Below are positions 11,639 to 37,316 of a stretch of DNA of 64,000 nt, piece after piece. Location: contig CAZWEZ010000005.1 in the NCBI GenBank assembly GCA_964632795.1, positions 314-64,313 on the forward strand, given 5' to 3'. The stretch is from an uncultured Thalassospiraceae bacterium (GTDB taxonomy: Bacteria > Pseudomonadota > Alphaproteobacteria > Rhodospirillales > 2-02-FULL-58-16). A program made the position numbers and the translations under genes. Numbering within the stretch: the first letter of the stretch is position 1; every line of letters begins with the position of its first letter. The notes beneath the pieces are model-generated. The model did no database searches. It was not told the DNA's origin and saw only the letters and a program-made list of their open reading frames with translations.

Positions 11639-11989
11639 CGCCCCTCCCCTTCCCGGCGCTCCCGGAGGGCCCCGGAAGGGACATCGCCATTGCCTCCCTG
11701 TACCATGGGCCGGAAACCTGTTGTACAGGGAAATGAGTTCAACCCACAATGAAACGGGACGGGATGAGGGACATCGGGAGCATTACGGGACTTTGCGGAG
11801 ATCGAGAGCCCCCGGGAATCGCTCCCAGACCCTCGAAAATTAGAATCATCTTGATTTACCCTCGGGCCCATCGCTAGGCTACGACCGCTACGGAGTGGAA
11901 CAGGTGGGCGTCGAGACCGAACATAAGGCCTTGAAAACCCTTCCGAATATGATCAGGGACGGAACCAGGCAAGGGGCAGGGGCGAGAAA

Positions 11990-12094
11990 TCAAAAGACGT
12001 AGAATGACAGGATCAGAACGATCACGATCGCGTTGACGACCATTCCCGTGAAAATCACGATGTCGGCCGGGGAGATTTTCTTGGTGAACCTCAT
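11990..12094 (-). CDS. Possible 34-aa hydrophobic peptide (MRFTKKISPADIVIFTGMVVNAIVIVLILSFYVF)
   Basis: An ATG..TGA ORF below the 60-aa track cut-off with one clear TM segment. It has no convincing Shine-Dalgarno sequence and is divergent from the 12169 operon. Confidence 0.2.
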   Translation of the reverse strand: MRFTKKISPADIVIFTGMVVNAIVIVLILSFYVF

Positions 12095-12168
12095 GGGGTG
12101 GACGCTAGGTTATCCGGGTTGGCGTTGTCAATCCGCAGTGAGGGACTGAACAAGGGGAAACCGCGAAG

Positions 12169-12276
12169 ATGAACGGCGAAGGAAACGAAGACTCGAAATA
12201 TCCATGGGCGGGACCGGTTCTGTTCGGCGTCGTCCTGGTCGCCGTGATCGCCTTCTTCTGGTGGTTCCTCGGCTGA
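12169..12276 (+). CDS. Mini membrane protein, 35 aa (MNGEGNEDSKYPWAGPVLFGVVLVAVIAFFWWFLG)
   Basis: An ORF found by hand, below the track cut-off. It has a single TM helix and is first in a chain of closely spaced co-directional genes. Confidence 0.45.
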   Translation: MNGEGNEDSKYPWAGPVLFGVVLVAVIAFFWWFLG

Positions 12277-12296
12277 CGGAGAGGGAGGAGACCGAG

Positions 12297-12413
12297 ATGA
12301 AAGGGTACGCGGTGCCGTTCGCCATCGCCTTCGTGGTCTGCGGGGCGGCCTTCTTCGTCATGGACTACGCGGTGATGAACGTCCAGGGGCTGTCCCTGTT
12401 CTTTGAAAACTGA
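12297..12413 (+). CDS. Mini membrane protein, 38 aa (MKGYAVPFAIAFVVCGAAFFVMDYAVMNVQGLSLFFEN)
   Basis: GAGGGAGGAG (12281-12290) lies 6 nt upstream of ATG 12297. The product has a single TM helix and ends 28 nt before the CydA-like gene. Confidence 0.55.
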   Translation: MKGYAVPFAIAFVVCGAAFFVMDYAVMNVQGLSLFFEN

Positions 12414-12441
12414 CGCCATCTCGAGAGGAAGGCAAACTGAG

Positions 12442-14250
12442 ATGAGGGATCGTCTGGCGAAAACCGGCTGGCTGGCGTTGGCGTTGGTCCTGGCCGTGCT
12501 GGTGTTGGGCGGCGGCATCGAAGCCGTCGCCGCCGAGTCGGCCGCCGAGACGGTGGCCGAAGCCGAAGCGCCGCCCCTCTACGCCCCCGCGCCCCGGTTG
12601 AGCGTGGCCGACTACCCGACCATCGCCGGCGTCAATTCGCGGGTCGTGGTGTGGCTGGTCGCCCAGTTGCACCTGTGGTTCGCAGCCTTCGTGCTGGCGG
12701 TGCCGATCTTCGTCTTCATCATCGAGGCGATCGGCATGAAGACCCGGGACAAGCGCTTCGACGACATGGCCTACGAGTTCATCAAGGTCTCGATCACCGC
12801 CTATTCGCTGACCGCGATCTCGGGCGGTCTGCTGGTCTTCTCGCTGCTGATCTTCTATCCCCACCTGTTCCTCTACCTGTCGACGATCTTCAAGGAGACG
12901 ATGTTCTACTACGCGATCCTGTTCTTCGCCGAGAGCGCCTTCCTCTACATCTACTACTACGGTTGGCACTGGCTGCAGGGGGGATTCCGCAAGTGGGTGC
13001 ACCTGACCCTGGGGCTGCTGCTCAACGCCGTCGGCACGTTGCTGATGTTCCTGGCCAACGCCTGGCTGACCTTCATGATGAGCCCGGCCGGGGTCGATGC
13101 GGCCGGGGTCTTCGGCGGCGACACCATGGTTTCGATCCACAACTACCTGTGGAACCCCTTCAACCTTCACCGGTTCATCGCCAACATCGCCTACGGCGGC
13201 TCCATCGTCGGCGCCTACGCCGCCTTCAGGTTCCTGAGCGCGACGGCGCGCGACCAGAAGGCCCACTACGACTGGATGGGCTACAACGCCAACTTCATCG
13301 CCATCTCGGCGCTGTTGCCGCTGCCGTTCGCCGGTTATTACCTGTCGGCCGAGTTCTACGCCTACAGCCAGCAGATGGGGATCACCCTGATGGGCGGCAT
13401 CTTCGCCTGGATGTTCATCATCCAGGCGGTGCTGATCGGCGCCCTGTTCCTGTCGGCCAACTATTACCTGTGGTGCGGGATGGGGCGCAGCGACGGGGCG
13501 GTCCGCTACAACAAGTACATCAAGTACATCGCGGTGGTGATCGTGGCCTCGTTCCTGGTCTGGTTCACCCCCCACACCCTGGTCCTGACGAATGAGGAAC
13601 TGAAGGCGCTGGGCGGGCCGTATCACAAGTACATCGGCCCGCTGGGCATCATGCCGGCCAAGAACACGGCGGTGAACCTGATGATCCTGTTCACCTTCGT
13701 CAGCTTCGTGATCTACCGGCGCTGCAACAAGGTCGCCACGGTGTCGTGGGTCAAGGCCGGCAACGCCTTCCTTGTGGCGCTGTTCGCCACCGGCATCATC
13801 AACCTGTTCATCCTCGGCATCTACCACGGCTACTTCACCAACACCGTCTACAAGGTCGCGTCCTCCTGGCCACAGGTCGTCACCACCCTGATCATCATCG
13901 TCGTCACCGTCGTCGTCGACAACCTGATGTACAAGGGGGCCAGGGAGGTCGCTCCCCTCCAGTGGGGCCGGGTTCCCGCGCGCTCGCAGTACGCCCTGTT
14001 CCTGCTGGCGGTGGCCTTCACCTGGCTGATGGGGCTGATGGGGTATGTCCGCTCGGGCATCCGCCAGCACTGGCACGTGGTCGACATCATGCGCGACAAC
14101 TCGACCGAAGCCTTCACCCCGACCATAAGGTACGCGACCAACGTGGTTTCGGTGGGCACGGTCATCTTCATGGCCCTGGTCATCTTCGTGTTCTGGCTGA
14201 GCCAGGTCGGCGGCCGCAAGACGGTTCCCGCCGGCTACTGGAAGGAATAG
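12442..14250 (+). CDS. Cytochrome bd subunit I-like (CydA-like) polytopic membrane protein, orphan (no CydB partner)
   Basis: ATG 12442 follows GAGAGGAAGG. Helix-1 has a His motif (VAQLHLWFAAFVLAVPIF). An FFAESAFLYIYYYGW segment resembles the CydA FFLE..F..FGW segment. ANAWLTFMMSPAG resembles NSWMQ.P.G, and NPFNLHRFIANIAYGG is also present. The product is ~602 aa. The next ORF is a cytochrome c, not cydB. Confidence 0.75.
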   Translation: MRDRLAKTGWLALALVLAVLVLGGGIEAVAAESAAETVAEAEAPPLYAPAPRLSVADYPTIAGVNSRVVVWLVAQLHLWFAAFVLAVPIFVFIIEAIGMKTRDKRFDDMAYEFIKVSITAYSLTAISGGLLVFSLLIFYPHLFLYLSTIFKETMFYYAILFFAESAFLYIYYYGWHWLQGGFRKWVHLTLGLLLNAVGTLLMFLANAWLTFMMSPAGVDAAGVFGGDTMVSIHNYLWNPFNLHRFIANIAYGGSIVGAYAAFRFLSATARDQKAHYDWMGYNANFIAISALLPLPFAGYYLSAEFYAYSQQMGITLMGGIFAWMFIIQAVLIGALFLSANYYLWCGMGRSDGAVRYNKYIKYIAVVIVASFLVWFTPHTLVLTNEELKALGGPYHKYIGPLGIMPAKNTAVNLMILFTFVSFVIYRRCNKVATVSWVKAGNAFLVALFATGIINLFILGIYHGYFTNTVYKVASSWPQVVTTLIIIVVTVVVDNLMYKGAREVAPLQWGRVPARSQYALFLLAVAFTWLMGLMGYVRSGIRQHWHVVDIMRDNSTEAFTPTIRYATNVVSVGTVIFMALVIFVFWLSQVGGRKTVPAGYWKE

Positions 14251-14256
14251 GGGGCG

Positions 14257-15084
14257 ATGGGAAACTTCCTCAGGGTGGTCGTCTTCAGCCTCATCACCAT
14301 CGTCTTGTTCGCCGGCTATTCCGGGTGGGGGATCCCGCAGATCAAACCGGCGCCCCCGCCCAAGGAGGAAAAGCTGGACCTCGGCGCCATGACCATGGAC
14401 CGCTTCATCGCCCTGGGGGAGAAGATCTACAAGGGCAAGGGGACCTGCACGCTGTGCCACAACGAGCTGGGCCGGGCGCCGATGCTGGACAATGCCGCCG
14501 CGACCGCCGCCGAGCGGCTGGCCGATCCCGGATACCAGGGCACGGCCGAAACCGTCGAGGAATTCCTTTACGAGTCCATGGTCGATCCCACGGCCTACGT
14601 GGTCGCCGGCTTCGGCAAGAAGGGCACCAACGACACGGTCAGCCCGATGACAGACGTGTCGGCCGGCAGCACCCGGCTGTCGGAGGCCGAAATCAGCGCC
14701 CTCATCGCCTACCTCCAGGACCTGGCCGGGGCCGAGGTGACGGTGGAGATTCCGACCGGCGTCGCCGAAGACGACGGCGAGGAAGACGGCGAGGAGGGCG
14801 AGGCCAGGGCGCCCCTCGAGAGCGCCGAGGAGGTGATCGAGGAATTCGCCTGCGGCATTTGCCACGTCATCGCTGGCGAGGAAGGGGAGTTGGGTCCCGA
14901 CCTGTCGAAGATCGGCGCCGACAGGGACCGCGACTTCCTGCGCCGCTCCATCCTCGACCCCAACGCCGAGCTCACCGAGGGCTTCGAGGAGGATATGATG
15001 CCCCCCGACTACGGCGAACAGATGTACGCCAAGGAACTGGAAATGCTGCTGGATTACATGGCCGGGTTGAAAGAGGGGGAATGA
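14257..15084 (+). CDS. Membrane-anchored dihaem cytochrome c with acidic linker
   Basis: There is an N-terminal TM anchor, two CXXCH motifs (CTLCH, CGICH) and an EDDGEEDGEEGE linker. The stop overlaps the next start (ATGA at 15081-15084). Confidence 0.85.
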   Translation: MGNFLRVVVFSLITIVLFAGYSGWGIPQIKPAPPPKEEKLDLGAMTMDRFIALGEKIYKGKGTCTLCHNELGRAPMLDNAAATAAERLADPGYQGTAETVEEFLYESMVDPTAYVVAGFGKKGTNDTVSPMTDVSAGSTRLSEAEISALIAYLQDLAGAEVTVEIPTGVAEDDGEEDGEEGEARAPLESAEEVIEEFACGICHVIAGEEGELGPDLSKIGADRDRDFLRRSILDPNAELTEGFEEDMMPPDYGEQMYAKELEMLLDYMAGLKEGE

Positions 15085-15875
15085 GGACGATGTGGATTCT
15101 CAGCTTGTTCCGGGCCAGGTTGCTCCAGGCGATCCTGGTCCTGGTCGGGATTTACGTCGCCTTCATCGTCGTCTTCGATTATCTGCTCGGCGAGGTGATC
15201 CCCTCCAGCCTGCTGAACATGTACATGTTCTTCGCGGCGGCCGGGGTGTTCATGGTCTTCACCTTCACCGAGGAGGGGGCCCGCGAGATGGTGGCGCCGA
15301 TCAAGGCGCTGGTCGAGGATTCGTCCCGGAAGGTGATCCGCAACGTGGTTTTCGCGATCGTCCCCCTGGTGGCCGGGGCTTACGCCTACATGCAGATGCT
15401 GCCCGGCCTGGAGGCGCCGCTCGAGCTGCGCTCCATCCATCCGGCGCCGCCGACGACGGCCAAGATGTTCGGCAAGCGTTTCGACCTGCAGACCCTGGAG
15501 AACCCGTACCGCAAGTTCGAGAAGGAGGACCCGGAGAAGTTCCGCCAGCTGGTCGCCGCGGGGGCCGAGGTGTACATCGAGAACTGCCACTTCTGCCATG
15601 GCGACAAGCTCGACGGCAAGGGTCCCTACGCGGCGGGTCTGAACCCGATCCCTCTCAGTTTCCAGGACATCGGGACCATCGCCCAGTTGCAGGAATCCTA
15701 CCTCTTCTGGCGGATCACCACCGGCGGCCCCGGCCTGCCCGAGGAGGCGGCGCCGTGGATTTCGTCGATGCCGATCTGGGAGGACTTCCTGAGCGAGGAT
15801 GAGATCTGGAAGGTGATCCTGTTCCTCTACGACTACACCGGCCACCGGCCGCGGGCCTGGGGGGAGCACGAGTGA
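15081..15875 (+). CDS. Three-TM membrane protein with C-terminal monohaem cytochrome c domain
   Basis: The start is MRTMWILSLFRARLLQAILVLVGIYVAF. There is one CXXCH (CHFCH) followed by LFWRITTGGPG...MPIW. The upstream part of ORF 13746..15875 is an artefact. Confidence 0.8.
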   Translation: MRTMWILSLFRARLLQAILVLVGIYVAFIVVFDYLLGEVIPSSLLNMYMFFAAAGVFMVFTFTEEGAREMVAPIKALVEDSSRKVIRNVVFAIVPLVAGAYAYMQMLPGLEAPLELRSIHPAPPTTAKMFGKRFDLQTLENPYRKFEKEDPEKFRQLVAAGAEVYIENCHFCHGDKLDGKGPYAAGLNPIPLSFQDIGTIAQLQESYLFWRITTGGPGLPEEAAPWISSMPIWEDFLSEDEIWKVILFLYDYTGHRPRAWGEHE

Positions 15876-17398
15876 TGGTTGCCAGACGCTTTGCGTGGAT
15901 GATCACGGCGGCCCTGCTGGCGGGGGCGCCGGCTCATGGGGCGCCGGGCGACGCCGAGCGGGGAGAGGAGATCTACGTCAAGCGGTGCATGAACTGCCAC
16001 GGCGAGGAGGGCGACGGCCTGGGCCCGGGCGCCGAGCGGCTCAACCCGCCGCCCCGGGACTTCACGCTGGGCCTGTACAAGATCAAGACCACCGGCTTCG
16101 ACGATCCGGTGCCCAACGACGCCGACATCTACCGGATGATCGAGGTCGGCATGCCGGGGACCTCGATGCCCGGCTGGGGCGACGTGCTGTCCGAACAGGA
16201 GATATTGGACCTGGTCGCCTACCTCAAGGTATTCGCCGAACTGGAGGAGGAGGAACCCACCGAGCAGCTCGACTACGGCACCGCCGTAGCCTCTTCGGCC
16301 GACAGCATCGAGATCGGCCGCAAGCTGTTCCTGGACGGCGATCGGTGCTCCGAATGCCACGGCGTGGACGGCCGGGGAGACGCCATCAAGAAGCTCAAGG
16401 ACGACAACGGTGAGAGGACCTGGCCGCGCAACCTGACCAAGCCCTGGACCTTCATCGCCGGCAACGATCCCAAGGAGATCTTCGCCCGCATCTCGGTCGG
16501 CATCCCGGGCACCCAGATGCCGTCCTTCGCCGACCCCAAGAGCAAGAAGAAGCTGAGCGTCGAGGAGCGCTGGCACATCGCCAACTTCACCGCCTCGCTG
16601 GCCGACCCCGCCAAGACGGTACGGGCCGAGAAGACGGTGATCAAGGCGGCCAAGATCGACGGCGAGCTGCCCTCCGGACCCGAGGACCCCGCGTGGGCGG
16701 CGATCGAGGCGGTGAACTTCTTCATGGTCCCCCAGATGTTCCTCGAGGAACGGTTCTTCACCCCGTCCAACGACACCGTCTCGGCGCGCGCCCTCTACAA
16801 CGACCGGGCCATCGCCTTCCTGCTCGAATGGGACGACCGCACCCGGAGCACGCCCGGCGACGCGGCGGCGGAGAAGATCGCCGACCCCGGGATCGCCGAG
16901 GACGGGATCGCCATCCAACTGCCGGTGAGCATTCCCGAGGACATGGAGAAGCCCTATTTCGTGATGGGCGACGCCGCCGACCCGGTCAATTTCTGGCACT
17001 GGCGCGGGGGCACCGCCGAGGAGCCCGAGAGCGTCGCCCTGTACAACGCCAGAGGTCTCGCCGAGGTCGAGGAACGGGACGCCGCGGCGGCCGGCATCGC
17101 CGCCAAGGGAGCCTACAAGGCCGGCACCTGGCGGGTGATGATGACCAGGGAGCTGACCACCTCCGATGCCGAGAACGACCTCCAGTTCGAGGAGGGCCGG
17201 TTCATCCCCATCGCCTTTTCCGCCTGGGACGGCTCCAACAGCGAACGGGGCTCCAGGCGCACCGTGTCCACCTGGTACTGGCTGCTTCTCGAACCGTCGG
17301 TCGGCTCCAAGCCGATCGTCGCCGCGCTGATCGTCATCGTCCTGCTGCTCGGCGCCGAGCTGTGGTGGGCCCGCAGCGCGACGCGCAAAGGGACCTGA
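15875..17398 (+). CDS. Dihaem cytochrome c fused to an EB_dh (ethylbenzene-dehydrogenase gamma / DOMON-like haem-binding) domain, with C-terminal TM anchor
   Basis: A signal peptide is present. The haem motifs are CMNCH and CSECH. The C-terminal half (FFMVPQMFLEERFFTP...LLEWDD...IAIQLP...NFWHWRGG...GTWRVMMTREL...FSAWDGSNSERGSRRTVSTWYWL) matches my recollection of the EB_dh family. The start is GTG 15872 or ATG 15875, overlapping the upstream stop. Confidence 0.8.
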   Translation: MVARRFAWMITAALLAGAPAHGAPGDAERGEEIYVKRCMNCHGEEGDGLGPGAERLNPPPRDFTLGLYKIKTTGFDDPVPNDADIYRMIEVGMPGTSMPGWGDVLSEQEILDLVAYLKVFAELEEEEPTEQLDYGTAVASSADSIEIGRKLFLDGDRCSECHGVDGRGDAIKKLKDDNGERTWPRNLTKPWTFIAGNDPKEIFARISVGIPGTQMPSFADPKSKKKLSVEERWHIANFTASLADPAKTVRAEKTVIKAAKIDGELPSGPEDPAWAAIEAVNFFMVPQMFLEERFFTPSNDTVSARALYNDRAIAFLLEWDDRTRSTPGDAAAEKIADPGIAEDGIAIQLPVSIPEDMEKPYFVMGDAADPVNFWHWRGGTAEEPESVALYNARGLAEVEERDAAAAGIAAKGAYKAGTWRVMMTRELTTSDAENDLQFEEGRFIPIAFSAWDGSNSERGSRRTVSTWYWLLLEPSVGSKPIVAALIVIVLLLGAELWWARSATRKGT

Positions 17399-17446
17399 GC
17401 AGGAGACCGGACGATGGCCGAAGACCAACCCAGGAAAGGGGTCAAG

Positions 17447-17617
17447 ATGCGCATCTTCGGGGTCATCCTGATCTTCGTCGGGGTGCTCGACGGGATGCTG
17501 GCGTGGCGCGGCGGCTTCCAGCTCAGCGGCTTCTACGTGGTGCTGTTCGCCTCCGGGGTCCTGCTGTTCGCGCTGGGCGCCGTCAGGGGCCGGCGGCGGC
17601 CGGAGGAGTCCCGGTGA
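17447..17617 (+). CDS. Small two-TM membrane protein (56 aa from ATG 17447; 67 aa if ATG 17414)
   Basis: The product begins MRIFGVILIFVGVLDGMLAWRGG...VVLFASGVLLFALGAV. The stop overlaps the GTG start of the next gene (GTGA at 17614-17617). Confidence 0.5.
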   Translation: MRIFGVILIFVGVLDGMLAWRGGFQLSGFYVVLFASGVLLFALGAVRGRRRPEESR

Positions 17618-19266
17618 GCGAGGTCCCCCGGACCGAGGAGACCCCGGAGCGGTGGACGGCGCCCTGCCGGCGCATCCTGGTGGCACTCGACAATTCCGAC
17701 CACGCCGGGCGGGCGCTCGCCGAATCGATCCGCCTGGCCGGCTTCGCCGGGGGCACCGTGACCGGCATCCACGCCTACGCCGCCCGCCTCCACGACCGCC
17801 GTTTCCGGCAGATGGAGGGCGGGCTGCCGGCGCGCTACCTGGCCGAGGCCGAGATGTCGCACCAGCGCGAGGTCCACGACGACCTGATCACCCGCGGCCT
17901 CGACATCATCAGCGACAGCTACCACGACGTCGCCGAGAAGTCCTGCCGGCAGGCCGACGTCCCCTACCGCCGCCTCAGCCCGGAGGGCAAGAACTACCGG
18001 CGCATCGTCGAGGCCGTCGGGAGCGGCGACTTCGACCTTCTGGTCCTCGGCGCGCTGGGGGTCGGCGCGGTGCCCGGGGGCACCGTCGGCACCGTCTGCG
18101 AGCGGGTGGTCCGGCGCAGCCCGATCGACGTCCTGGTCGTCCGCGACCCCGCCCGGGCCCTCGACGCGGGGCCGATCGTGGTCGGCCTGGACGGCTCGCC
18201 GCGTTCCTTCGGCGCCCTGCTTGGCGCCCTCGACCTGGGGCGCCGGCTGGGCGCCGTGGTCCACGCCGTGGCCGCCTACGACCCCTACTACCACTACGTC
18301 GCCTTCAGGCGCATCTCCGGGGTGCTGAGCGAGGAGGCGGGCAAGGTGTTCCGCTTCAAGGAGCAGGAGCAGCTCCACGAGGAGCTGATCGACGAGGGCA
18401 TCGCCCGCATCTACCGCTCCCACCTCGAAGTGGCCGCCAGGATCGCCGGCGAGGACGGCGTCGAGCTGGTCACCGAGCTGCTGGACGGCAAGCCCTACCG
18501 GACCATCCTCGGCTACCTGGAGAAGGTCGGCGCCGGCCTGCTGATGGTGGGGCGGACCGGCATCCACGCCGATTCCGCCCTCGACATCGGCGGCAACGCC
18601 GAGAACCTGCTGCGCCTGGCGCCGTGCCACGTGTGGTTCGTCGCGGCGTCCTACGAGCCGCCCCTGGAGATGGTCGCCGCCGAAACCGTCGCCTGGAGCC
18701 CCGAGGCCGAGGAGTTGCTGTCCAGGGCCCCCGAGTTCGCCCGCGACATGGCCCGTCAGGCGGTGCTGCGCCACGCCCACGAACAGGGCCACACCTTCAT
18801 CACCACCGACATCGTCGGGGAGGTGGCCAACCGGCTGATGCCGGGGCGCGGCGAGGCCGCCTGCCCCCACGGCGCGGCGGAGCCGGCATGGAGCGCCGAG
18901 GCAAGCGCCCTGATCGAGGGCCTCGACAATCCCGCCCTGGCCGCCAACGTCCGCCTGCGGGCCGAGAAGCTGGCCCGCCGCGAAGGCGCGGAAACGGTCC
19001 TGGCGTCCCACCTCCGGCCCTTCATCGACGATCCCGGAGAAGGCGACTTAGCGCCGTGGTCGGCGGCGGCGCTGGCCTGCCTGGCCCGGGTCCCCGAGGC
19101 CGTGCGCGAGCGCGTCCGGGCCCGTGTCGAGACGGTGGCCCGCAACCGGGGGGCCGGCGAGGTGACGCCCGAGATCGTCGAGGCCGGGTTCGCCGAGGCG
19201 CGCCAGGCGATGCACCGGGCGATGCTGGACGGCGGCCACAAGCGGACCGTCGACGACGGGGAATAG
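17614..19266 (+). CDS. Tandem universal-stress-protein (USP) domains fused to three PCP_red-like (ChlB/BchB C-terminal type) repeats
   Basis: GGAGGAG (17602-17608) precedes GTG 17614. There are two USP-like halves (ILVALDNSDH...LLVLGALG; IVVGLDGSPRS...LLMVGRTG). Three repeats follow of the pattern W(S/T)xEAxxxLxxxPxxxRxxxR...G...(V/I)Txxxx, at roughly 18694-18816, 18889-19014 and 19057-19188. Confidence 0.75.
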   Translation: MSEVPRTEETPERWTAPCRRILVALDNSDHAGRALAESIRLAGFAGGTVTGIHAYAARLHDRRFRQMEGGLPARYLAEAEMSHQREVHDDLITRGLDIISDSYHDVAEKSCRQADVPYRRLSPEGKNYRRIVEAVGSGDFDLLVLGALGVGAVPGGTVGTVCERVVRRSPIDVLVVRDPARALDAGPIVVGLDGSPRSFGALLGALDLGRRLGAVVHAVAAYDPYYHYVAFRRISGVLSEEAGKVFRFKEQEQLHEELIDEGIARIYRSHLEVAARIAGEDGVELVTELLDGKPYRTILGYLEKVGAGLLMVGRTGIHADSALDIGGNAENLLRLAPCHVWFVAASYEPPLEMVAAETVAWSPEAEELLSRAPEFARDMARQAVLRHAHEQGHTFITTDIVGEVANRLMPGRGEAACPHGAAEPAWSAEASALIEGLDNPALAANVRLRAEKLARREGAETVLASHLRPFIDDPGEGDLAPWSAAALACLARVPEAVRERVRARVETVARNRGAGEVTPEIVEAGFAEARQAMHRAMLDGGHKRTVDDGE

Positions 19267-19269
19267 GCC

Positions 19270-20526
19270 ATGGCCTCCACCGTCCAGCCGCCGTACCTGG
19301 TCGCCCTCAACCTGACCCGACGCTGCAACCTCCGTTGCGCCCACTGCTACCTGGACGCCGGCACCCGGGCCGGGGGCGGAGCCGGCGCCGGAGAAGAACT
19401 ATCCACCGCCGAGGTCGAAACCCTGCTCGAGGGGATCGCCGCGCTGAACGGCGAGGCGATGGTGGTGCTGACCGGCGGCGAGCCGCTGCTGCGCCCCGAC
19501 CTCGAGGCGATCGCCCGCCACGGCTCCGGCCTCGGGCTGATGATGGTGCTCGGCACCAACGGCACCCTGCTCGACGCGCGGCGGGTCGCCGGCCTGATCG
19601 CCGCCGGGGTGCGGGGCGCCGGGATCAGCCTGGATTCCCTGGATGCGGACTATCACGACGGTTTCCGGGGCGTGGCCGGCTGCTGGGAGAAGACCATGGC
19701 GGCCATCGACGCCTGCCGGCGGGGCGGGCTCGGCTTCCAGATCCACTTCTCGGTGAGCGACGACAACGCCGACCAGTTGGACGACATGATCGCCTTCGCC
19801 CGCTCGGCCGGGGCGCTGGTGCTCAACGTCTTCTTCCTGGTCTGCACCGGGCGCGGCGAGCAGCTGTCCAACGTCTCCGCGGCGACTTTCGAAGACGTCC
19901 TGGGCCGCATCGCCCGGGCCGCCCACGCCGAGAGCGGATTGCTGATCAGGGCCAAGTGCGCCCCCCACTTCAAACGCCTGGCCATGGAGCTCGACCCGTC
20001 GTGGCCGATCACCCTGGCCCACGGCTACGAGGCCGGCGGCTGCCTGGCCGGCAGCCGCTACTGCCGGGTGACCCCGGAAGGCGAGGTCACGGCCTGTCCC
20101 TACATGGAGCCGTCCGCCGGTTCGATCCGCGAGCGCCCGTTGGCCGACATCTGGCGCGAGGCGCCGCAGTTCGCCCAACTCCGGGCGCCGGTTCTGGAGG
20201 GCCGCTGCGGGGAGTGCGAGTACCGCCGGATCTGCGGCGGCTGCCGGGCCCGTCCCCTGGCCAGGAGCGGCGACCTGATGGGCGAGGACTTCCTGTGCGG
20301 CTACCAGCCCCGGGGCGGGGCGGTGATCGAGCCCCTGAGGCCGGCGGCGGGGACCGTCTCGTGGACCCAGGAGGCCGAACAGCGGCTGCTCCGGGCGCCC
20401 GCCTTCCTGCGCCGGATGGTCCGCGGGCGGGCCGAGGAGTACGTCCGCGGCCGCGGCCGCAGCCGGGTCACCGCCGACGACATGCGAATCCTCGGCCAGC
20501 GGCGTTTCGGGGAGGACCGGCGATGA
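19270..20526 (+). CDS. Radical SAM/SPASM enzyme (AhbD/NirJ-like) with C-terminal PCP_red-like domain
   Basis: The CxxxCxxC motif is RRCNLRCAHCY (19324-19347). SPASM-type Cys clusters are present (CLAGSRYCRVTPEGEVTACPY; CGECEYRRICGGCRARP). The C-terminal WTQEAEQRLLRAPAFLRRMVRGRAEEYVRGRGRSRVTADDM lies at ~20362-20484. Confidence 0.85.
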   Translation: MASTVQPPYLVALNLTRRCNLRCAHCYLDAGTRAGGGAGAGEELSTAEVETLLEGIAALNGEAMVVLTGGEPLLRPDLEAIARHGSGLGLMMVLGTNGTLLDARRVAGLIAAGVRGAGISLDSLDADYHDGFRGVAGCWEKTMAAIDACRRGGLGFQIHFSVSDDNADQLDDMIAFARSAGALVLNVFFLVCTGRGEQLSNVSAATFEDVLGRIARAAHAESGLLIRAKCAPHFKRLAMELDPSWPITLAHGYEAGGCLAGSRYCRVTPEGEVTACPYMEPSAGSIRERPLADIWREAPQFAQLRAPVLEGRCGECEYRRICGGCRARPLARSGDLMGEDFLCGYQPRGGAVIEPLRPAAGTVSWTQEAEQRLLRAPAFLRRMVRGRAEEYVRGRGRSRVTADDMRILGQRRFGEDRR

Positions 20527-21935
20527 GGTTCGACGTGGCGATCGTCGGGGGCGGGATTTCGGGGCTGGCGACGGCCTACGAACTGGTCCGCCGGGGCCGC
20601 CGGGTGGTGGTCCTGGAGCGCCAGGTGCGGCCCGGCGGGACCGCCGTCTCCGAGCGCCTCGGCGGTTTCCTGATGGAGCACGGGCCGAGCACCCTCAACG
20701 GCGCTTCGGAGGCGGCGCTGGGCCTGTCCCGGGCGCTCGGCCTGGAGGGCGCGCGGTGCGAACTCGGCGACCGGGTGCGACGGCGCTACCTGGTCGACGG
20801 CGGAGGCCTGCACGGCATCTCGACCCATCCCCTGGGGTTCCTGGTCTCCGGCTACCTGTCGCCGGGGGCGCGGCTGCGGCTGCTGGCCGAGGCCGTGGTG
20901 CCGCGCCGCGCCGAAGACGGCGACGAGGAGACGATCGAGGACTTCTGCCGGCGCCGCTTCGGGGCCGAGTTCGCCGAGCGGGTGATCGACCCCCTGGTCG
21001 CCGGCATCTACGCCGCCCGGGCCGGCGAGGCGTCGGTGTCGGCGCTGTTCCCGACCCTGGTCGAGATGGAACGCCGCCACGGTTCGGTGTGCCGGGGGCT
21101 GGCCCGCCGCCGCCGGGGCGGGCGGATGCCGGGCAGCCGGCTGTTCTCGTTCGCCGGCGGCCTGGGCAGCCTGCCCCGGGCCCTGGCCGGGGCCCTCGGC
21201 GGGGTGGTGCGGAGCGGCATCGCGGTGCGCCGGGTGCGCCCGGCGGCCGGCGGTTATTCCATCGAGGCGGAGGCGGCAGGAAGCATCGAGGCGCGCTCGG
21301 TGGTGCTGGCCACCCAGCCCCACGTCACGGCGCGGCTGCTCGACGGCCTCGACGAGGCGGGCGCCGAGGCGGCCTCGGCCATCGCCGCGCCGCCGCTGGC
21401 GGTGGTCTTCCTCGGCTACCCCCGGCGCCGGGTCGCCCATCCCCTGGACGGCCTCGGCTTCCTCGGCGCCGAGGCCGAGGGGCGGGCGCTCAACGGCGCC
21501 CAGTTCTGCTCGACCATGTTCCCGGGCCGGGCGCCCGAGGGCCACGTGGCGGTGGCCGGCTACATCGGCGGGGCGCGGGCTCCGGAGCTGGCCCGGCTCG
21601 GCGAGGACGAGTTGATCTCCATCGCCCGCGAGGAGTTCGCCGACCTCATCGGGGCGCGGGGCGAACCGGTGGTGGCCCGGGTCCGCCACTGGCCGGTGGG
21701 GTTGCCCCAGTACCGGCTCGGCCACGCCTTACGCGCCGCCGCGCTGAGCGGCCTGGCCGAGCGCCGGCCCGGCCTCTATGCGACCGGCAACTATCTGCGC
21801 GGCCCCTCGGTGGCGGCCTGCCTGGCCCTGGCCCTGGAGACCGCCGCCGAAGCCGACGCCCACCTCGCCGCGAGCGCCGCCGAGGCGCCGCCCATCCGCC
21901 GTCACCGGCTTGCCCGGCCTGCCGCGGGAAGGTAG
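20523..21935 (+). CDS. FAD-dependent protoporphyrinogen/coproporphyrinogen oxidase (HemY/CgoX-type)
   Basis: ATG 20523 overlaps the upstream stop (ATGA). The dinucleotide-binding motif is MRFDVAIVGGGISGLATAYEL...LERQVRPGG. The family-typical tail is HWPVGLPQYRLGH...LYATGNYLRGPSV. The upstream 957 codons of ORF 17652..21935 are an artefact. Confidence 0.8.
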   Translation: MRFDVAIVGGGISGLATAYELVRRGRRVVVLERQVRPGGTAVSERLGGFLMEHGPSTLNGASEAALGLSRALGLEGARCELGDRVRRRYLVDGGGLHGISTHPLGFLVSGYLSPGARLRLLAEAVVPRRAEDGDEETIEDFCRRRFGAEFAERVIDPLVAGIYAARAGEASVSALFPTLVEMERRHGSVCRGLARRRRGGRMPGSRLFSFAGGLGSLPRALAGALGGVVRSGIAVRRVRPAAGGYSIEAEAAGSIEARSVVLATQPHVTARLLDGLDEAGAEAASAIAAPPLAVVFLGYPRRRVAHPLDGLGFLGAEAEGRALNGAQFCSTMFPGRAPEGHVAVAGYIGGARAPELARLGEDELISIAREEFADLIGARGEPVVARVRHWPVGLPQYRLGHALRAAALSGLAERRPGLYATGNYLRGPSVAACLALALETAAEADAHLAASAAEAPPIRRHRLARPAAGR

Positions 21936-22000
21936 CCTCGGGGAAGATCCCAAGAGGGGATGGCATGCGCCTTGGCGCCCGCGTCCTCGTCGGCTTGTTG

Positions 22001-22930
22001 CTAGCCGCGCAGCAGGTCGTGGGACGCCACCACGGCGCCGCCGGCGATCAGCAGGCAGGCGGCGGCCACCGCCCACGTCGCCTCGGCCTGGCCGAAGGCG
22101 ATCAGGAGCGCGGTCGAGAGCAGCGGGGCGCTGTAGGAGAAGGCGCCCAGCGCCCGGATGTCGCCGTGCTTGACGCCGTGGTCCCAGACGAAGAAGGCGG
22201 CCCCCACCGGCCCCAGCCCGAGGCCCAGCACGGCCAGCCACTGGCCGCTATTTTGAGGCCATGCGGTGGTCTCGAAGGCCAGGTGGAAGAGCACGGCGAG
22301 CACCGCCGTGGCCCCGCAGAAGCCGCCCACCGCGTCGCTGGGGACGTCGGCGAAGCGGCGGCTGAGCACCGAGTACACCGCCCACGTGACGGCGCCCAGG
22401 AGGGCCAGCGCGTAGCCCAGCCAGAACTCGGCCTTGAAACCCAGGGCGCCGCCGCCGGTGACCAGCAGGACGGTCCCGGCGAACCCGGCCAGGGTGCCCG
22501 CCAGGTGCCACCAGCGCAGCCGCTCGCCGGGCAGCAGCGCCGACAGGACGACGATCAGCAGCGGCCACAGGTAGGCGATCAGGCTGGCCTCGACGGGCGG
22601 CGCGTTGCGCAGCGCCATGAAGTAGAAGAAGTGGTAGCCGAACAGCCCGCCGATGCCGAGCAGCCACACCCTGGCCGGCCAGCGCAGGTGATCGAGGATG
22701 GTGTCGCCGCCGAGCAGCCACTTGCCAAGCGCCAGCACGAAGGCCACCGAGAAGGCCATGGCGATGAGCTGGAACGGCGGCACCGGCCCGCTCAGCGTGG
22801 TCAGCAGGGCCAGCGTCGACCACATCAGCACCGCCGTGCCGCCGATCGCCGTGGCGCGGAGCTTGCGGTGGTGGGGGGACTGGACGATGGGGTTCACGGG
22901 AAAAAACCGGATCTGGGATGTCCGTCCCAT
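22001..22930 (-). CDS. DMT-superfamily (EamA-like) transporter
   Basis: The product is ~10 TM helices in two EamA-like halves. The start is uncertain, and an internal Met further in is possible. Confidence 0.8.
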   Translation of the reverse strand: MGRTSQIRFFPVNPIVQSPHHRKLRATAIGGTAVLMWSTLALLTTLSGPVPPFQLIAMAFSVAFVLALGKWLLGGDTILDHLRWPARVWLLGIGGLFGYHFFYFMALRNAPPVEASLIAYLWPLLIVVLSALLPGERLRWWHLAGTLAGFAGTVLLVTGGGALGFKAEFWLGYALALLGAVTWAVYSVLSRRFADVPSDAVGGFCGATAVLAVLFHLAFETTAWPQNSGQWLAVLGLGLGPVGAAFFVWDHGVKHGDIRALGAFSYSAPLLSTALLIAFGQAEATWAVAAACLLIAGGAVVASHDLLRG

Positions 22931-28339: not shown

Positions 28340-29515
28340 ATGCCCCAACCGATCACCATCCTGGCCTATGGTTTCCGCCCCTTCTTCCTCCTCGCGGGCC
28401 TCTACGGGGTGTTGTCCATGGCCTTCTGGCTGTTGGTCCTCGCGGGCGGGCCGGACGTTTCGCCGACCATCGCGCCGCAGCTCTGGCACGGCCACGAGAT
28501 GCTGTTCGGCTTCGCCGCCGCGGCGGTCAGCGGTTTTCTGTTGACGTCGGTCCCCAGTTGGACCAACTCGCCCCCGGCAACCGGCCCCTGGCTGGCCCTG
28601 CCGGTGGTCCTGTGGATTGCCGGGCGGGCCGCCATGTGGCTGGCCGGTGTGCTTCCCCCGGTGGTGACGGCTGTCGCCGATTTGTCCCTGATCCCGGTCC
28701 TGTTCCTGATGGTGGGGCCCCGGATCCTGGGCTGCGGACAGCGCCGGAACTACATCTTCCTGGTCCTTCTGGGGGTGCTGTTCGCGGCCAACCTGCTGTT
28801 CCACCTGGAGGCCCTGGGGGTGAGCGGGGATACGGCGCGCGGCGGTCTCAAGCTGGCGGTCTACGGCTACATCCTGATGCTGTCGGTGGTCGCCGGACGG
28901 ATCATACCCTTCTTCACCGCCAACGCCCTCAAGGGACAGGGCGAGGACGTCGAGATCCGCCCCAACCCGGTCCTCGAAATCCTGGCCCTGGTGGTGATGG
29001 CCGCCTACATGGCCAGCGACCTGGCCGAGGTCGCCGAATCGATCCGTGGCGGGCTGGCCTTCGCCACCCTGCCGATCCTGCTGCTGCGGATGGCCAATTG
29101 GCGAACCGCGAAGACGCTGGGCATCCCGATCCTGTGGATCATCCACCTCGGCTACCTGTGGCTGCCGGTGGGGTTCGCCAGCCTCGGGGCGGCCCACCTG
29201 GGCGCCGCCGTGCCCATCACCATGGGACTTCACGCGCTGACCACCGGCGCCGTCGGGACCATCGTCATGGCGGTGATGACGCGCGCCGGGCTGGGCCATA
29301 CCGGGCGCCCGCTGGTGGTCCCGTGGCCGATCGTCGCGGCCTATCTGCTGGTCACCCTGGCCGCCCTGTTCCGCACCGCAGCACCGTTGAGCGATGCCGG
29401 CTACGACATCCTGATCATCGCCGCCGGCGGCGCGTGGTCGGCGGCCTATGGGGTGTTCACGGTGGTCTACTGGCCGCTCCTGACCCGTCCGCGCATCGAC
29501 GGCAAGCCCGGTTGA
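28340..29515 (+). CDS. nnrS: NnrS family haem/copper membrane protein (NO-response)
   Basis: The product begins MPQPITILAYGFRPFFLLAGLYGVLSMAFWL...LWHGHEMLFGFAAAAVSGFLLTSVPSWT. It is a 391-aa polytopic protein. Confidence 0.9.
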   Translation: MPQPITILAYGFRPFFLLAGLYGVLSMAFWLLVLAGGPDVSPTIAPQLWHGHEMLFGFAAAAVSGFLLTSVPSWTNSPPATGPWLALPVVLWIAGRAAMWLAGVLPPVVTAVADLSLIPVLFLMVGPRILGCGQRRNYIFLVLLGVLFAANLLFHLEALGVSGDTARGGLKLAVYGYILMLSVVAGRIIPFFTANALKGQGEDVEIRPNPVLEILALVVMAAYMASDLAEVAESIRGGLAFATLPILLLRMANWRTAKTLGIPILWIIHLGYLWLPVGFASLGAAHLGAAVPITMGLHALTTGAVGTIVMAVMTRAGLGHTGRPLVVPWPIVAAYLLVTLAALFRTAAPLSDAGYDILIIAAGGAWSAAYGVFTVVYWPLLTRPRIDGKPG

Positions 29516-30287: not shown

Positions 30288-31127
30288 CTACAAGGAGAAT
30301 TGCATCTCGATGTCGGCCAGGCCGGCCTTGGCTCCCTGGGGCACGTGGTAGGGCGGACGCTGGCCCAGATAGAGGATGCCCAGGTTGAACCCGTCGTCGC
30401 CCATCAGGCGCTTGCCGGCCCGCTCCGGGTCGCTGGTCGGTTCGACCGGCGCCTTGCGGACGGCGTTCTTCCAATCGCGCTGTTCGGGGCGGTAGGTCAC
30501 GCACGGGGTCAGAATCTGGATGAACGAGAAACCGGGATGGCGGACCGCATCGACGATCAGCTTGGCGACGCCGTTGGGATCGCCGGAGAAGCCGCGGGCG
30601 ATGAAGTTGGCGCCCGCCGCCAGGGCCACGCCCAGGGGCTGGAACGGATTGATCCCGGTGCCGTGCGGGGTCAGCTTGCTGCCTTCCCACTCGGGCGCGG
30701 TGGTCGGCGAGGCCTGGCCCTTGGTCATCCCGTAGACCTGGTTGTCCATGACGATGTAGGTCAGGTCGACGTTGCGCCGGCAGGCGTGGAGGAAGTGGTT
30801 GCCGCCGATCGAGAAGCCGTCGCCGTCGCCCCCCGTGACCAGCACCGTCAGTTCGGGCCGGGCCAGCTTGAGGCCGGCGGCCAGGGCCAGCGAACGGCCG
30901 TGGACGCCGTGGAACCCGTAGACGTTGGTGTAGGCGGGGATGCGCGACGAACAGCCGATCCCCGAGATCACCGCCGCCTCCTCGCGGCCGATACCCAGCA
31001 CCGACAACGCCTTGGTGATCGAGGACAGGACCGAGAAATCGCCGCATCCGGGACACCAGATGGGCTTGTATTCGGACTTGAAGTCCTTGGCGGTGAGGGA
31101 TTGGGTTTGCGGTGAGGCTTTTTCCAT
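30288..31127 (-). CDS. korB: 2-oxoacid:ferredoxin oxidoreductase beta (TPP-binding) subunit
   Basis: Motifs are WCPGCGDFSVL, GGDGDGFSIGGNHF and MDNQVYGMTKGQ. The 2-oxoglutarate specificity implied by the symbol is not proven. Confidence 0.9.
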   Translation of the reverse strand: MEKASPQTQSLTAKDFKSEYKPIWCPGCGDFSVLSSITKALSVLGIGREEAAVISGIGCSSRIPAYTNVYGFHGVHGRSLALAAGLKLARPELTVLVTGGDGDGFSIGGNHFLHACRRNVDLTYIVMDNQVYGMTKGQASPTTAPEWEGSKLTPHGTGINPFQPLGVALAAGANFIARGFSGDPNGVAKLIVDAVRHPGFSFIQILTPCVTYRPEQRDWKNAVRKAPVEPTSDPERAGKRLMGDDGFNLGILYLGQRPPYHVPQGAKAGLADIEMQFSL

Positions 31128-31132
31128 CCGAT

Positions 31133-32866
31133 TCAGCTCCAGTTGACCAGCGCCTCGAGGACCTGCCCCGGGCGGATCGGCAGGGGTCCCGGCTGGTTGA
31201 AGACCTTGACCTCGGCGGGCAGGTCGTAGTGGGCCCGCAGGTAGCGGAAAAACTGCCGGGAGTGGCTCTGCTCGACCACCAGCACCCGCTCGACGCCCTC
31301 GATCGCCGCCTGGAAGCGCTCGACCTGGGCCGGAGCCAACAGGCGCATCGAGACCAGCCGGGCGTCGAGGCCCTGGTCGCGGGCCCGGTCCCGGGCCTCC
31401 CGTGACGGCCCGGTGGAGGACCCCCAGGTGACGATGGCCACCTCGCCGTCCCCCGAAACGTCGGCCCAGTGGTCGCCGTAGTCGTGGTTGTCCAGCTTGC
31501 GCTGGCGCTTCTCAAGCTGCTCCAGGTGATCCTCGGACTGGCTGGACGGCCTGCCGTTGGGGGTGTGCTCGAGGCCGTCGGCGACGTATTCGCCGCCCGG
31601 CGTCCCGGGGATCGCCATCGGCGAGACTCCCGAATCGGTCACCGCGTAGCGGCGGTAGCCGGTGACCCCGGCGGCGGCGATTTCGCGCTTGCCCGCGAAG
31701 GCGAGGTCCGCCGGACGCTCGAAGACCGTCCGCGTCTGGCCCAGCGACTGGTCGGTGAGGAAGATGGCCGGGGTCTGCAGGACCTCTGCCAGATGCACCG
31801 ACCAGTGGGCGGTGAACAGGCAGTCCTCGACCGAATTCGCCGCCGTCACCAGGTGCGGGGCGTCGCCGTGCAGGCCGTACAGGGCGATGTTGAGGTCGCT
31901 CTGTTCCGACTTGGTCGGAATCCCGGTCGACGGGCCGCCGCGCATCACGTTGACGATGACCACCGGAACCTCCGAGGCCACCGCCAGGCCGATGCTCTCC
32001 ATCATCAGGGCCAGTCCCGGGCCCGAGGTGGCGGTCAGCGACGGCACGCCGCCGAAGGAACCGCCGATGATCATGTTGATCGAGGCCAGCTCGTCCTCGG
32101 CCTGGACCAGGACGCCGCCCAGCTTCTCGAGGTTGGGGGCCAGCCATTCCAGGACTTCGGTGGCCGGGGTGATGGGATAGGCGGCGACGAACCGCAGGCC
32201 GCCCCTGATGGCGCCGAGACCGGTGGCTTCGTTGCCGCTGATGTTCCAGCGTTCTCCATCGAGGGTCGAGGCGGGTACCTTGAACGAACACCGGACCCCC
32301 GATTCCCCGAGCGCCGCGCTGCCGGCGCGGATACAGACGATACCGGACTCGACGGCCTCCCTGCCCTTCCTCCCGAGCGCCTTGTCCAGGGTCGCGGCCA
32401 TGGTTTCCAGCGGCAACCCGATCAACGCCGCGACGGCGCCCAGGCCGATCATGTTGGGCCTTCCCCCGGGGATCTCCTTGGCCATCTTCTTGAGCGGTAT
32501 TTCGACGATCCTGGCCCCGGTCGAGGTGATCACCTCGGGCACCTCGCCGGCCGCCGGGTCGCAGATCACCAGGCTGCCGCCATCCAGGGGAAGCTCGGCG
32601 GCGAAGCGTTCGATGTTGGCCCAGTCGAAGGCGACGTGGATCTCGTAGGTGTCGTCCTGGGACATCACCGGGCGGGTGCCGAGGCGGATGTAGGCCGCCG
32701 ATTCGCCGCCCCGGATCTGGGGACCGGCGGCGCGCGCCATCTGGCCGAAGAGGCCGGCCGCGGCGGCGGTCTCGAGAAGGATCTGGCCGGCCGTCACGAC
32801 GCCGGCCCCGCCGGCGCCGGTCATGGCGATGGTTACCGTCTCGGGCGGCGTTCGCTCAACAGCCAT
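31133..32866 (-). CDS. korA: 2-oxoacid:ferredoxin oxidoreductase alpha subunit (fused gamma-alpha type)
   Basis: The start MAVERTPPETVTIAMTGAGGAGVVTAG is at CAT 32864-32866, with an alternative 10 codons upstream. The gene sits 5 nt upstream of korB. Confidence 0.9.
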   Translation of the reverse strand: MAVERTPPETVTIAMTGAGGAGVVTAGQILLETAAAAGLFGQMARAAGPQIRGGESAAYIRLGTRPVMSQDDTYEIHVAFDWANIERFAAELPLDGGSLVICDPAAGEVPEVITSTGARIVEIPLKKMAKEIPGGRPNMIGLGAVAALIGLPLETMAATLDKALGRKGREAVESGIVCIRAGSAALGESGVRCSFKVPASTLDGERWNISGNEATGLGAIRGGLRFVAAYPITPATEVLEWLAPNLEKLGGVLVQAEDELASINMIIGGSFGGVPSLTATSGPGLALMMESIGLAVASEVPVVIVNVMRGGPSTGIPTKSEQSDLNIALYGLHGDAPHLVTAANSVEDCLFTAHWSVHLAEVLQTPAIFLTDQSLGQTRTVFERPADLAFAGKREIAAAGVTGYRRYAVTDSGVSPMAIPGTPGGEYVADGLEHTPNGRPSSQSEDHLEQLEKRQRKLDNHDYGDHWADVSGDGEVAIVTWGSSTGPSREARDRARDQGLDARLVSMRLLAPAQVERFQAAIEGVERVLVVEQSHSRQFFRYLRAHYDLPAEVKVFNQPGPLPIRPGQVLEALVNWS

Positions 32867-32970
32867 CCCTTCGCATTCTCCTCTCGACGCATACATGTTC
32901 GACCCCGGCGTGTCCGTGGACCGGGATATCCCGGTCCATGGGCACGCTGGTCACACCATCTATGAAGTTA

Positions 32971-33427: not shown

Positions 33428-37024
<3,597 letters not shown>

Positions 37025-37316
37025 TGCCGGAGTTCCTTTTCTGCTTGCCGGGAAAGACTTCCGCCGGCCCCGCGAAACGGGCCGGCGAGGTTTTCGCATG
37101 ATATCATATCGCGGCGCGGAATTGAGCGCGAAAATAAGAGAAGGACGCCCGTGCGGCAAGCCCAAAAGGAACGACTCCATGGCTGAACAATTGAAACGCG
37201 TCTCATAAGTCAAAGAAAACTCAAGTCACCAGCTGAACGAACTTCAGGCAATGAAATCAGTGCTAACCACACTGGTCTAACACGTGGCCATCGCTATGGC
37301 ATGGCAGGATCAGGCA

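Follow-up and report, generated by a model that had tools for sequence, protein, structure and literature searches.

A conserved trio of a Usp/PCP_red protein, an AhbD-related radical SAM protein and a HemY-family oxidase beside haem-rich respiratory modules in Alphaproteobacteria

The window analysed here is a stretch of 64,000 nucleotides from contig CAZWEZ010000005.1 of an uncultured Thalassospiraceae bacterium. A preliminary description of it had treated a radical SAM gene and the HemY-family oxidase gene that follows it as a two-gene unit, overlooking the gene upstream and a PCP_red domain at the C-terminus of the radical SAM protein. We find that the real unit is three genes, F-G-H, and that this trio is conserved beside haem-rich respiratory genes. 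The three genes are (aa, amino acids; Usp, universal stress protein; HMM, hidden Markov model; AF2, AlphaFold2; FAD, flavin adenine dinucleotide):

17614-19266, plus strand: F, tandem Usp part followed by three PCP_red modules (Pfam, local HMM, AF2/Foldseek)
19270-20526, plus strand: G, radical SAM/SPASM protein with a C-terminal PCP_red domain, 418 aa (Pfam, NCBIfam)
20523-21935, plus strand: H, HemY-family FAD oxidase, 470 aa (Pfam Amino_oxidase, TIGR00562)

The reading that we favour, tentatively, is that F-G-H is an accessory cassette for late haem (protoporphyrin) synthesis that serves cytochrome-rich respiratory modules working at low or zero oxygen. We regard the trio as accessory because its distribution is patchy and because it is associated with respiratory modules, with which it is inherited and probably transcribed. 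This reading builds on the domains of the three proteins, on how tightly their genes are packed, on the conservation of the trio, on a separate clade for G, on the residue signature of H and on adjacency to four types of respiratory module. In the literature we found no description of the cassette, of the PCP_red-bearing AhbD-like clade or of the link to respiratory modules. Both enzyme families are known; the PCP_red fusion, the Usp partner, the pairing with a PgoX-type oxidase and the genomic associations are new.

Results

Conservation of F-G-H

One genome per species, 185,579 species genomes in all, was scanned with G. A relative of G was encoded at 373 loci, and the trio is therefore present in at most these 373. 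The loci were scattered over several alphaproteobacterial orders. The best 80 of the 373 were all from metagenome-assembled genomes (MAGs), nearly all labelled alphaproteobacterial or simply proteobacterial and many of them from oxygen-minimum zones or groundwater. Where the flanking sequence sufficed, 79 of 82 loci had F and 75 of 84 had H, and the genes were ordered F-G-H. Exact look-ups of the F, G and H sequences yielded neither names nor accessions. In the window G and H overlap as ATGA, with the start codon of H at 20523-20525 and the stop codon of G at 20524-20526, and this overlap or a near-abutment recurs among the relatives.

More distant relatives carry variants of this arrangement. 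A Nitrospirota MAG whose G is ~43% identical to that of the window has the window's order of cydA-like, cytochrome c, cytochrome c-EB_dh, F, G and HemY-like genes. In Nitrospinota the F-G pair lacks H, and some of these loci add a Crp regulator, an ATPase of the Mrp/ParA type and a small protein with PCP_red only. Brocadia has G by itself, named "nirJ 3" in one source. The HemY-like genes of the Nitrospirota locus and of a NosZ locus described below are 32-35% identical to H, compared with 40% for Myxococcus xanthus PgoX. These genes are more distant from H than PgoX is, which suggests that the need for a porphyrinogen oxidase next to F-G arose repeatedly, and one may have been recruited to F-G more than once.

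F and the PCP_red modules

F, the first gene of the trio, encodes a predicted cytoplasmic protein. Pfam matched Usp in two stretches (106 bits) and PCP_red (88.2 bits). The Usp part covers residues ~20-345 and is followed by three-helix PCP_red modules at 361-404, 426-468 and 481-525, as delimited with a local HMM. The AF2 model (pLDDT 79) matched Rv2623 (E=2.6e-14) and ATP-bound TTHA0350 (E=5.4e-14) in Foldseek, and F is a tandem-type universal stress protein with two Usp alpha/beta domains. Conservation of F is strong and includes many invariant His, Asp and Tyr residues, and wherever F is annotated it is labelled only "universal stress protein". In some relatives F is ~150 aa longer than in the window.

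The PCP_red domain (PF08369) is shared by F, with three copies, and G, with one, above the Pfam thresholds. It is the same domain as the C-terminal domain of BchB/ChlB of the dark-operative protochlorophyllide reductase. In the trio, however, it is detached from the nitrogenase-like reductase and is repeated in Usp, radical SAM and small stand-alone proteins, the last being PCP_red-only proteins present among distant relatives.

G belongs to a PCP_red-bearing clade related to AhbD

The preliminary description had recognised G as a radical SAM protein with CxxxCxxC and SPASM clusters, and both are borne out. Pfam matched Radical_SAM (E=8.7e-23) and SPASM (E=1e-8, 35.7 bits), and the motif CNLRCAHC supplies the CX3CX2C cysteines C19, C23 and C26. 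These three are invariant in 45 homologues, as are C230, C258, C265, C276, C313, C316, C322, C325 and C343. The C-terminal auxiliary cluster of AhbD is bound by the motif CX2CX5CX2C...C (PMC10114771), and G has this SPASM motif in C313/C316/C322/C325/C343. The PCP_red domain occupies residues 365-406 (49.3 bits).

To place G among characterised families, it was compared with NCBIfam models. The highest scores were for NirJ2 (TIGR04055, 290.9 bits) and AhbD (TIGR04545, 287.4 bits), both aligned end to end and both far under their equivalog cut-offs of 500 bits. The NirJ, AhbC and NirJ1 models gave 143-165 bits, with NirJ (TIGR04051, haem d1 synthesis) at 164.6 bits against a cut-off of 515, and peptide maturases gave at most 136 bits. 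G is also 37-45% identical to AhbD-AhbA/B fusion proteins. Its AF2 model (pLDDT 78) has a SPASM radical SAM fold, and the closest solved structures are those of PqqE, SkfB, SuiB and anSME; AhbD and NirJ have no structure that could serve as a reference in this comparison.

A search of 1.84 billion cluster representatives recovered 635 clusters of G relatives at E<=1e-30. Among the best 150 of these 635, about 44 carried one to four PCP_red modules, and these scored highest. In a neighbour-joining tree of 103 core regions, a distance-based tree without support values, the PCP_red bearers formed one clade. The few members with no detected PCP_red were mostly truncated sequences or had a different C-terminus. 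The clade lay apart from the AhbD-AhbA/B fusions, from the NirJ2 equivalog P0165 (533 bits) and from TIGR04053 (P0204), and its members scored 278-344 bits on the AhbD and NirJ2 models, under the cut-off of 500. It also includes proteins of anammox bacteria, Nitrospinota and Nitrospirota, and databases label its members merely "radical SAM protein" or "nirJ 3". These comparisons indicate that G is an AhbD relative and not a demonstrable AhbD. G shares with AhbD, the haem b synthase that decarboxylates coprohaem, and with Firmicute NirJ2 the CX3CX2C motif, the full SPASM motif and a full-length alignment; it differs in its sub-cut-off score, separate clade, C-terminal PCP_red and Usp/PCP_red partner F, with no ahbA/B/C nearby. 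The earlier label of AhbD/NirJ-like thus holds insofar as AhbD and NirJ2 are the nearest characterised families, and needs the reservation that G falls below their cut-offs in a clade of its own.

Some relatives, among them P0391-P0395 (~800 aa) and P0281/P0286 (~720 aa), have unusual architectures. The ~800-aa proteins are double radical SAM proteins, and in this double type a single PCP_red separates two radical SAM/SPASM halves. An apparent "tetrapyrrole methylase" fusion in one of them, P0392, was rejected, as its Pfam score was 26.3 against a threshold of 27.8 and the protein is a double radical SAM protein.

H has a residue signature of the protoporphyrinogen oxidase type

That G is followed, in an ATGA overlap, by a HemY-family FAD oxidase was likewise upheld. 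H has the FAD dinucleotide-binding motif GGGISG at residues 9-14 and matched Pfam Amino_oxidase (E=2.2e-54) and the NCBIfam protoporphyrinogen oxidase model TIGR00562 (241.5 bits against a cut-off of 97.85). Its best solved relative is M. xanthus (Mx) PgoX (PDB 2IVD), with 251 bits and ~40% identity over the full length, compared with 157 bits for Bacillus subtilis (Bs) CgoX and 150 bits for tobacco PPO2. In PgoX, R95, F329 and L332 (Mx numbering) are strictly conserved, whereas all CgoX have small residues there and typically carry F227 and R364 in Bs numbering (Zamocky et al. 2023, PMC10740692). We read these positions in H and 38 orthologues (n=39):

Mx R95: R88 in H, 39 of 39
Mx F329: L311 in H, Leu in 36 of 39; bulky, not Phe
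Mx L332: L314 in H, 36 of 39
Bs F227: L207 in H, 39 of 39
Bs R364: A345 in H; Ala, Ser or Thr, never Arg, in the 39 sequences

H therefore lacks the CgoX signature, which consists of Phe and Arg at Bs 227 and Bs 364, respectively, and of small residues at Mx R95/L332. It shares with Mx PgoX the FAD motif, the R95/L332 equivalents and a bulky residue at F329, and differs in having Leu at F329 and Ser for Asn at N63, and in that its gene overlaps, as ATGA, the radical SAM gene in front of it. By these residues H resembles protoporphyrinogen oxidases rather than coproporphyrinogen oxidases, and a route of the coproporphyrin type is therefore the less likely reading.

The trio lies beside four types of respiratory module

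Neighbours were counted in the 54 loci whose upstream sequence reached 8 kb or more; 51 of these are alphaproteobacterial, and some loci carry more than one module. A haem-rich respiratory module lay directly beside the trio in 49 of the 51 alphaproteobacterial loci. The counts, with dimethyl sulfoxide abbreviated to DMSO, were:

cydA-like / cytochrome c / EB_dh cluster, as in the window: 35 loci
Two dihaem cytochrome c peroxidases, Rieske protein, AioA-family molybdoenzyme, HEAT-repeat protein and beta-sandwich protein: 15 loci
NarG-like type II DMSO-reductase alpha/beta/EB_dh-gamma set: 2 loci
Neither module, alphaproteobacterial: 2 loci
Neither module, more distant relatives: 3 loci

The AioA-family enzyme scored 413 bits on TIGR02693 against 359. 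A fourth type of module was found at L083 (906-9284), where a clade III lactonase-type NosZ (L-NosZ; NF052460, 742 bits against 700) and a cytochrome c precede F-G-H. The trio thus follows bd-like, AioA/IdrA-like plus peroxidase, NarG-like type II and clade III NosZ modules. What is common to all four is c-type cytochromes and low-oxygen or anaerobic respiration, and no particular b- or d-type haem protein. This shared trait favours a general haem supply over a cofactor made solely for the bd-like oxidase. A cofactor specific to that oxidase, such as haem d, was down-weighted because the trio also lies beside modules without b- or d-type haem proteins. The suggestion in the preliminary description that the G/H pair acts specifically for the upstream cytochromes accordingly stands in part: the tie to respiratory cytochrome genes is confirmed, but the same trio also follows AioA/IdrA-like, NarG-like and L-NosZ modules.

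Individual loci show further features of these modules. The AioA-type module is found at L020 (1-8142) and also at L024, L030, L033, L044, L045, L048 and others; its further members are a 730-aa HEAT/PBS-lyase-like repeat protein and a 250-aa beta-sandwich protein. Its peroxidases, Rieske protein and AioA-family enzyme may resemble the iodate reductase clusters idrABP1P2. L048 carries the AioA-type and the cydA-like module together. The NarG-like loci, L058 (1409-8337), L062, L063 and L031, are from Xanthobacteraceae and Hyphomicrobiaceae MAGs, and the set directly upstream of F-G-H consists of a 1192-aa alpha subunit, an FeS beta subunit and an EB_dh gamma subunit. The G of L083 is 52% identical to that of the window and has four PCP_red modules.

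The operon and its surroundings in the window

Public gene calls for the contig and our own checks show s1-s2-A-B-C-D-E-F-G-H as a tightly packed operon on the plus strand, in which s1, s2 and A-E are context outside the trio (TM, transmembrane):

12169-12276, plus strand: s1, 35 aa, one predicted TM helix (translation; tblastn matches in 26 related loci)
12297-12413, plus strand: s2, 38 aa, one predicted TM helix (conserved in 30 related loci)
12442-14250, plus strand: A, CydA-like membrane protein, 602 aa from ATG (Pfam Cyt_bd_oxida_I)
14257-15084, plus strand: B, membrane-anchored dihaem cytochrome c, two CxxCH
15090-15875, plus strand: C, membrane monohaem cytochrome c, one CxxCH, three hydrophobic segments (crude hydropathy scan)
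15875-17398, plus strand: D, dihaem cytochrome c with EB_dh domain and C-terminal anchor (Pfam, NCBIfam)
17414-17617, plus strand: E, 67 aa, two TM helices (conserved in most type-1 loci)

A scored 48.7 bits on Pfam Cyt_bd_oxida_I against a cut-off of 26.2 and gave no match in the NCBIfam search; it has about ten or more TM segments predicted from hydropathy and no CxxCH. A is probably a bd-like oxidase subunit of the kind that Murali et al. named OR-N; they report such oxidases mainly in Nitrospirota. The homologues of s1 in the 26 related loci sit at the same spot 5' of the cydA-like gene, relatives have gene calls of 37-38 aa there, and the position of s1 and s2 is comparable to that of CydX-type peptides. 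s1 and s2 are probably small subunits of the bd-like oxidase. D scored 95.2 bits on EB_dh, 73 bits on Cytochrom_C and 119 bits on TIGR03477, and its EB_dh domain is a haem b domain of the kind found in the gamma subunit of type II DMSO reductases. The A-D cluster has five CxxCH in all, spread over three c-type cytochromes, and the haem demand of the operon comprises at least five haem c, a haem b and the CydA haems. Most relatives have three more genes upstream, for a second EB_dh-cytochrome c and for cytochromes c of 219 aa and 122 aa; the window lacks these three.

The operon is flanked by ordinary chromosomal genes (pheT, a TRAP transporter, proline racemase, a convergent EamA, GDH and phaR). 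About 45 main open reading frames (ORFs) of the window were scanned with Pfam; none was recognised as a gene for ferrochelatase or HemQ or as any other hem gene, in line with the preliminary description. The scan of the main ORFs also gave no nirS, nirF, nirD, nirL, nirG or nirH, and no ahb gene was found in the window. The GC content of F, G and H is 73-77%, compared with 62-65% in A-C, while GC at third codon positions is alike (0.89-0.94). The excess is due to an amino acid composition rich in Ala, Gly and Arg, not to codon usage, and recent horizontal transfer of F-G-H, considered from the GC contrast, was dropped because third positions are the same. With one mismatch allowed, the FNR/Anr box TTGAT-N4-ATCAA matched twice in the window, neither time close to the operon. 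A promoter and terminator scan of 11700-22100 gave nothing beyond chance level, and Rfam and tRNA scans of the window gave no matches.

Elsewhere, the window encodes NnrS (28340-29515), a two-subunit 2-oxoacid:ferredoxin oxidoreductase (OFOR; 30288-32896) and a 1261-aa pyruvate:ferredoxin oxidoreductase (PFOR; 33428-37213). PFOR and OFOR are oxygen-sensitive enzymes, and NnrS, OFOR and PFOR fit a microaerobic or anaerobic (low-oxygen) lifestyle. A CcrM-type methylase with N6_N4_Mtase and RAMA domains is also encoded; CcrM-type methylases are typical of Alphaproteobacteria, and an alphaproteobacterial background is plausible for the window. The minus strand at 37317-40421 carries a gene for a 1034-aa protein with HD-CE and HATPase_c_3 domains. 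This region has ~50% GC against ~65% around it and is probably foreign DNA, possibly with a defence-type gene. Close to the window end, an ORF at 60535-61476 has weak matches to IS1 transposase and integrase core domains beside AAA ATPase genes and may be a mobile-element remnant.

Discussion

We infer a possible chemistry for the cassette from the sequences of G and H. G would carry out an oxygen-free oxidative decarboxylation of the AhbD/HemN type, turning the propionates of rings A and B into vinyls, and H would carry out the six-electron oxidation of the porphyrinogen ring. Coproporphyrinogen III would thus be converted by G to protoporphyrinogen IX and by H to protoporphyrin IX, which a housekeeping ferrochelatase would take over. 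The order G then H is the most economical because H is PgoX-like and not CgoX-like. G would be an AhbD-derived functional analogue of HemN/CgdH, and the chemistry and the order of steps, propionate to vinyl and then ring oxidation, would be those of HemN/CgdH followed by PgoX. CgdH and AhbD perform the identical conversion on different substrates (PMC10114771). G is, however, unrelated to HemN beyond the radical SAM core, and its action on a porphyrinogen is our proposal. The PCP_red modules of F and G might hold the two proteins together, cover the tetrapyrrole, or both, and the putatively nucleotide-binding tandem Usp part of F would couple activity to the energy or hypoxia state of the cell. 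In several proteobacteria hemN adjoins cco or fnr genes.

Several points weigh against this proposal. AhbD acts on iron-coproporphyrin, not on a porphyrinogen (PMC10114771), and the switch of substrate from coprohaem to porphyrinogen is pure inference on our part. HemY-type enzymes use O2 as acceptor, which fits a microoxic but not a strictly anoxic setting. Nitrospinota with F-G but no H, and Brocadia with G alone, imply that the ancestral role of G needs no HemY partner. Ferrochelatase is not in the cluster, redundancy with hemN, hemF or hemJ is assumed from the patchy distribution, and, with no FNR box upstream of the operon, control by FNR is unsupported.

An alternative that we consider unlikely is a hybrid coproporphyrin-dependent branch, in which H would oxidise coproporphyrinogen III to coproporphyrin III, a ferrochelatase encoded elsewhere would insert iron and G would convert coprohaem to haem b in place of HemQ/ChdC. 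The preliminary description had brought up such a transitional route, and our results weaken it. AhbD and NirJ2, the best characterised relatives of G, do act on coprohaem, and AhbD in place of ChdC has precedent in coproporphyrin-dependent (CPD) organisms (PMC13564367; PMC10114771). The CgoX-CpfC-AhbD route of those organisms likewise combines an oxidase of the HemY family and an AhbD-like radical SAM protein, and a plain AhbD-type role is simplest for the lineages without H, namely Nitrospinota and anammox bacteria. However, H has the R95/L332 equivalents without the F227 and R364 of CgoX and is nearer to Mx PgoX than to Bs CgoX, no coproporphyrin ferrochelatase (CpfC) is linked to the trio or present among the scanned ORFs of the window, and G falls under the AhbD cut-off and outside the clade of AhbA/B-fused AhbDs. 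A similarly doubtful reading is that the trio handles haem or matures a cofactor, with G and F as a HemW-like chaperone or haem remodeller and H as a local supplier of porphyrin. HemW, which inserts haem b into NarI (PMC10114771), sets a precedent as a radical SAM protein that is paralogous to an enzyme of haem synthesis and functionally linked with a respiratory reductase; it is of the HemN-like family without SPASM, unlike G, and haem binding by G or F is putative. The order of cydA-like, cytochrome c, EB_dh, F, G and H genes is kept between Alphaproteobacteria and the Nitrospirota MAG even at ~43% identity of G. Anammox bacteria, Nitrospinota and Nitrospirota, in which the PCP_red clade is prominent, have periplasmic nitrite oxidoreductases (NXR) with EB_dh-type haem b subunits. 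The high conservation of F, with invariant His, Asp and Tyr, and the assembly-like Mrp/ParA-type ATPase and PCP_red-only proteins added in distant relatives also fit a handling role, as does the occurrence of OR-N oxidases mainly in Nitrospirota (Murali et al.). The retention in G of all radical SAM/SPASM catalytic cysteines is neutral. Against this role, the trio also lies behind modules without a b- or d-type haem protein (AioA-like with peroxidases; L-NosZ with cytochrome c), so that a cofactor specific to bd-like or EB_dh proteins cannot explain all cases.

It is very unlikely that H is simply the housekeeping protoporphyrinogen oxidase, with its adjacency to G incidental or only regulatory. 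H does pass the TIGR00562 cut-off with a PgoX signature, and other hem genes are not visible among the scanned ORFs of the window. On the other hand, the trio occurs in so few of the genomes surveyed, scattered over several orders, H travels with F-G and accessory respiratory modules, and the translational coupling of G and H is conserved. We consider it highly improbable that G is a peptide- or protein-modifying SPASM maturase with no relation to tetrapyrroles, a case that the preliminary description had named as refuting its view. The closest solved folds are indeed PqqE, SkfB, SuiB and anSME, in a comparison that lacks AhbD and NirJ structures. The profiles nevertheless favour AhbD/NirJ2, at ~290 bits compared with at most 136 for any peptide maturase, and the identity of G to the AhbD-AhbA/B fusions (37-45%), its partnership with a porphyrinogen oxidase and its fusion to a domain otherwise from a tetrapyrrole reductase point the same way. 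No precursor-peptide gene is evident.

A wider view, possible though somewhat doubtful, is that F-G, with H in some lineages, constitutes an unrecognised tetrapyrrole maturation system common to anammox bacteria, Nitrospinota, Nitrospirota and Alphaproteobacteria of oxygen-minimum zones. It would take one of two forms. In one, it is a new, AhbD-derived, oxygen-independent coproporphyrinogen dehydrogenase route. In the other, it would provide a special haem, by synthesis or by insertion, to bd-like (OR-N) oxidases and to other reductases of the periplasm, and PCP_red would be the module that holds or docks the tetrapyrrole.

Terminal haem synthesis is regarded as largely mapped, by the protoporphyrin-dependent (PPD), CPD and siroheme routes. 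The present analysis describes a large AhbD-like clade that carries a protochlorophyllide reductase domain and has a Usp partner, joined in several lineages by a PgoX-type oxidase. Its hosts include anammox bacteria, Nitrospinota and Nitrospirota, which play central parts in the nitrogen cycle, and abundant low-oxygen marine Alphaproteobacteria, and the trio neighbours poorly understood respiratory enzymes, namely bd-like OR-N oxidases, AioA/IdrA-like enzymes and clade III NosZ. Should G act on coproporphyrinogen, that step would have a new anaerobic solution; should G be a chaperone or remodeller, it would bear on how these respiratory complexes acquire haem. Whichever reading holds, F-G-H is a concrete, clonable three-gene target for experiments.

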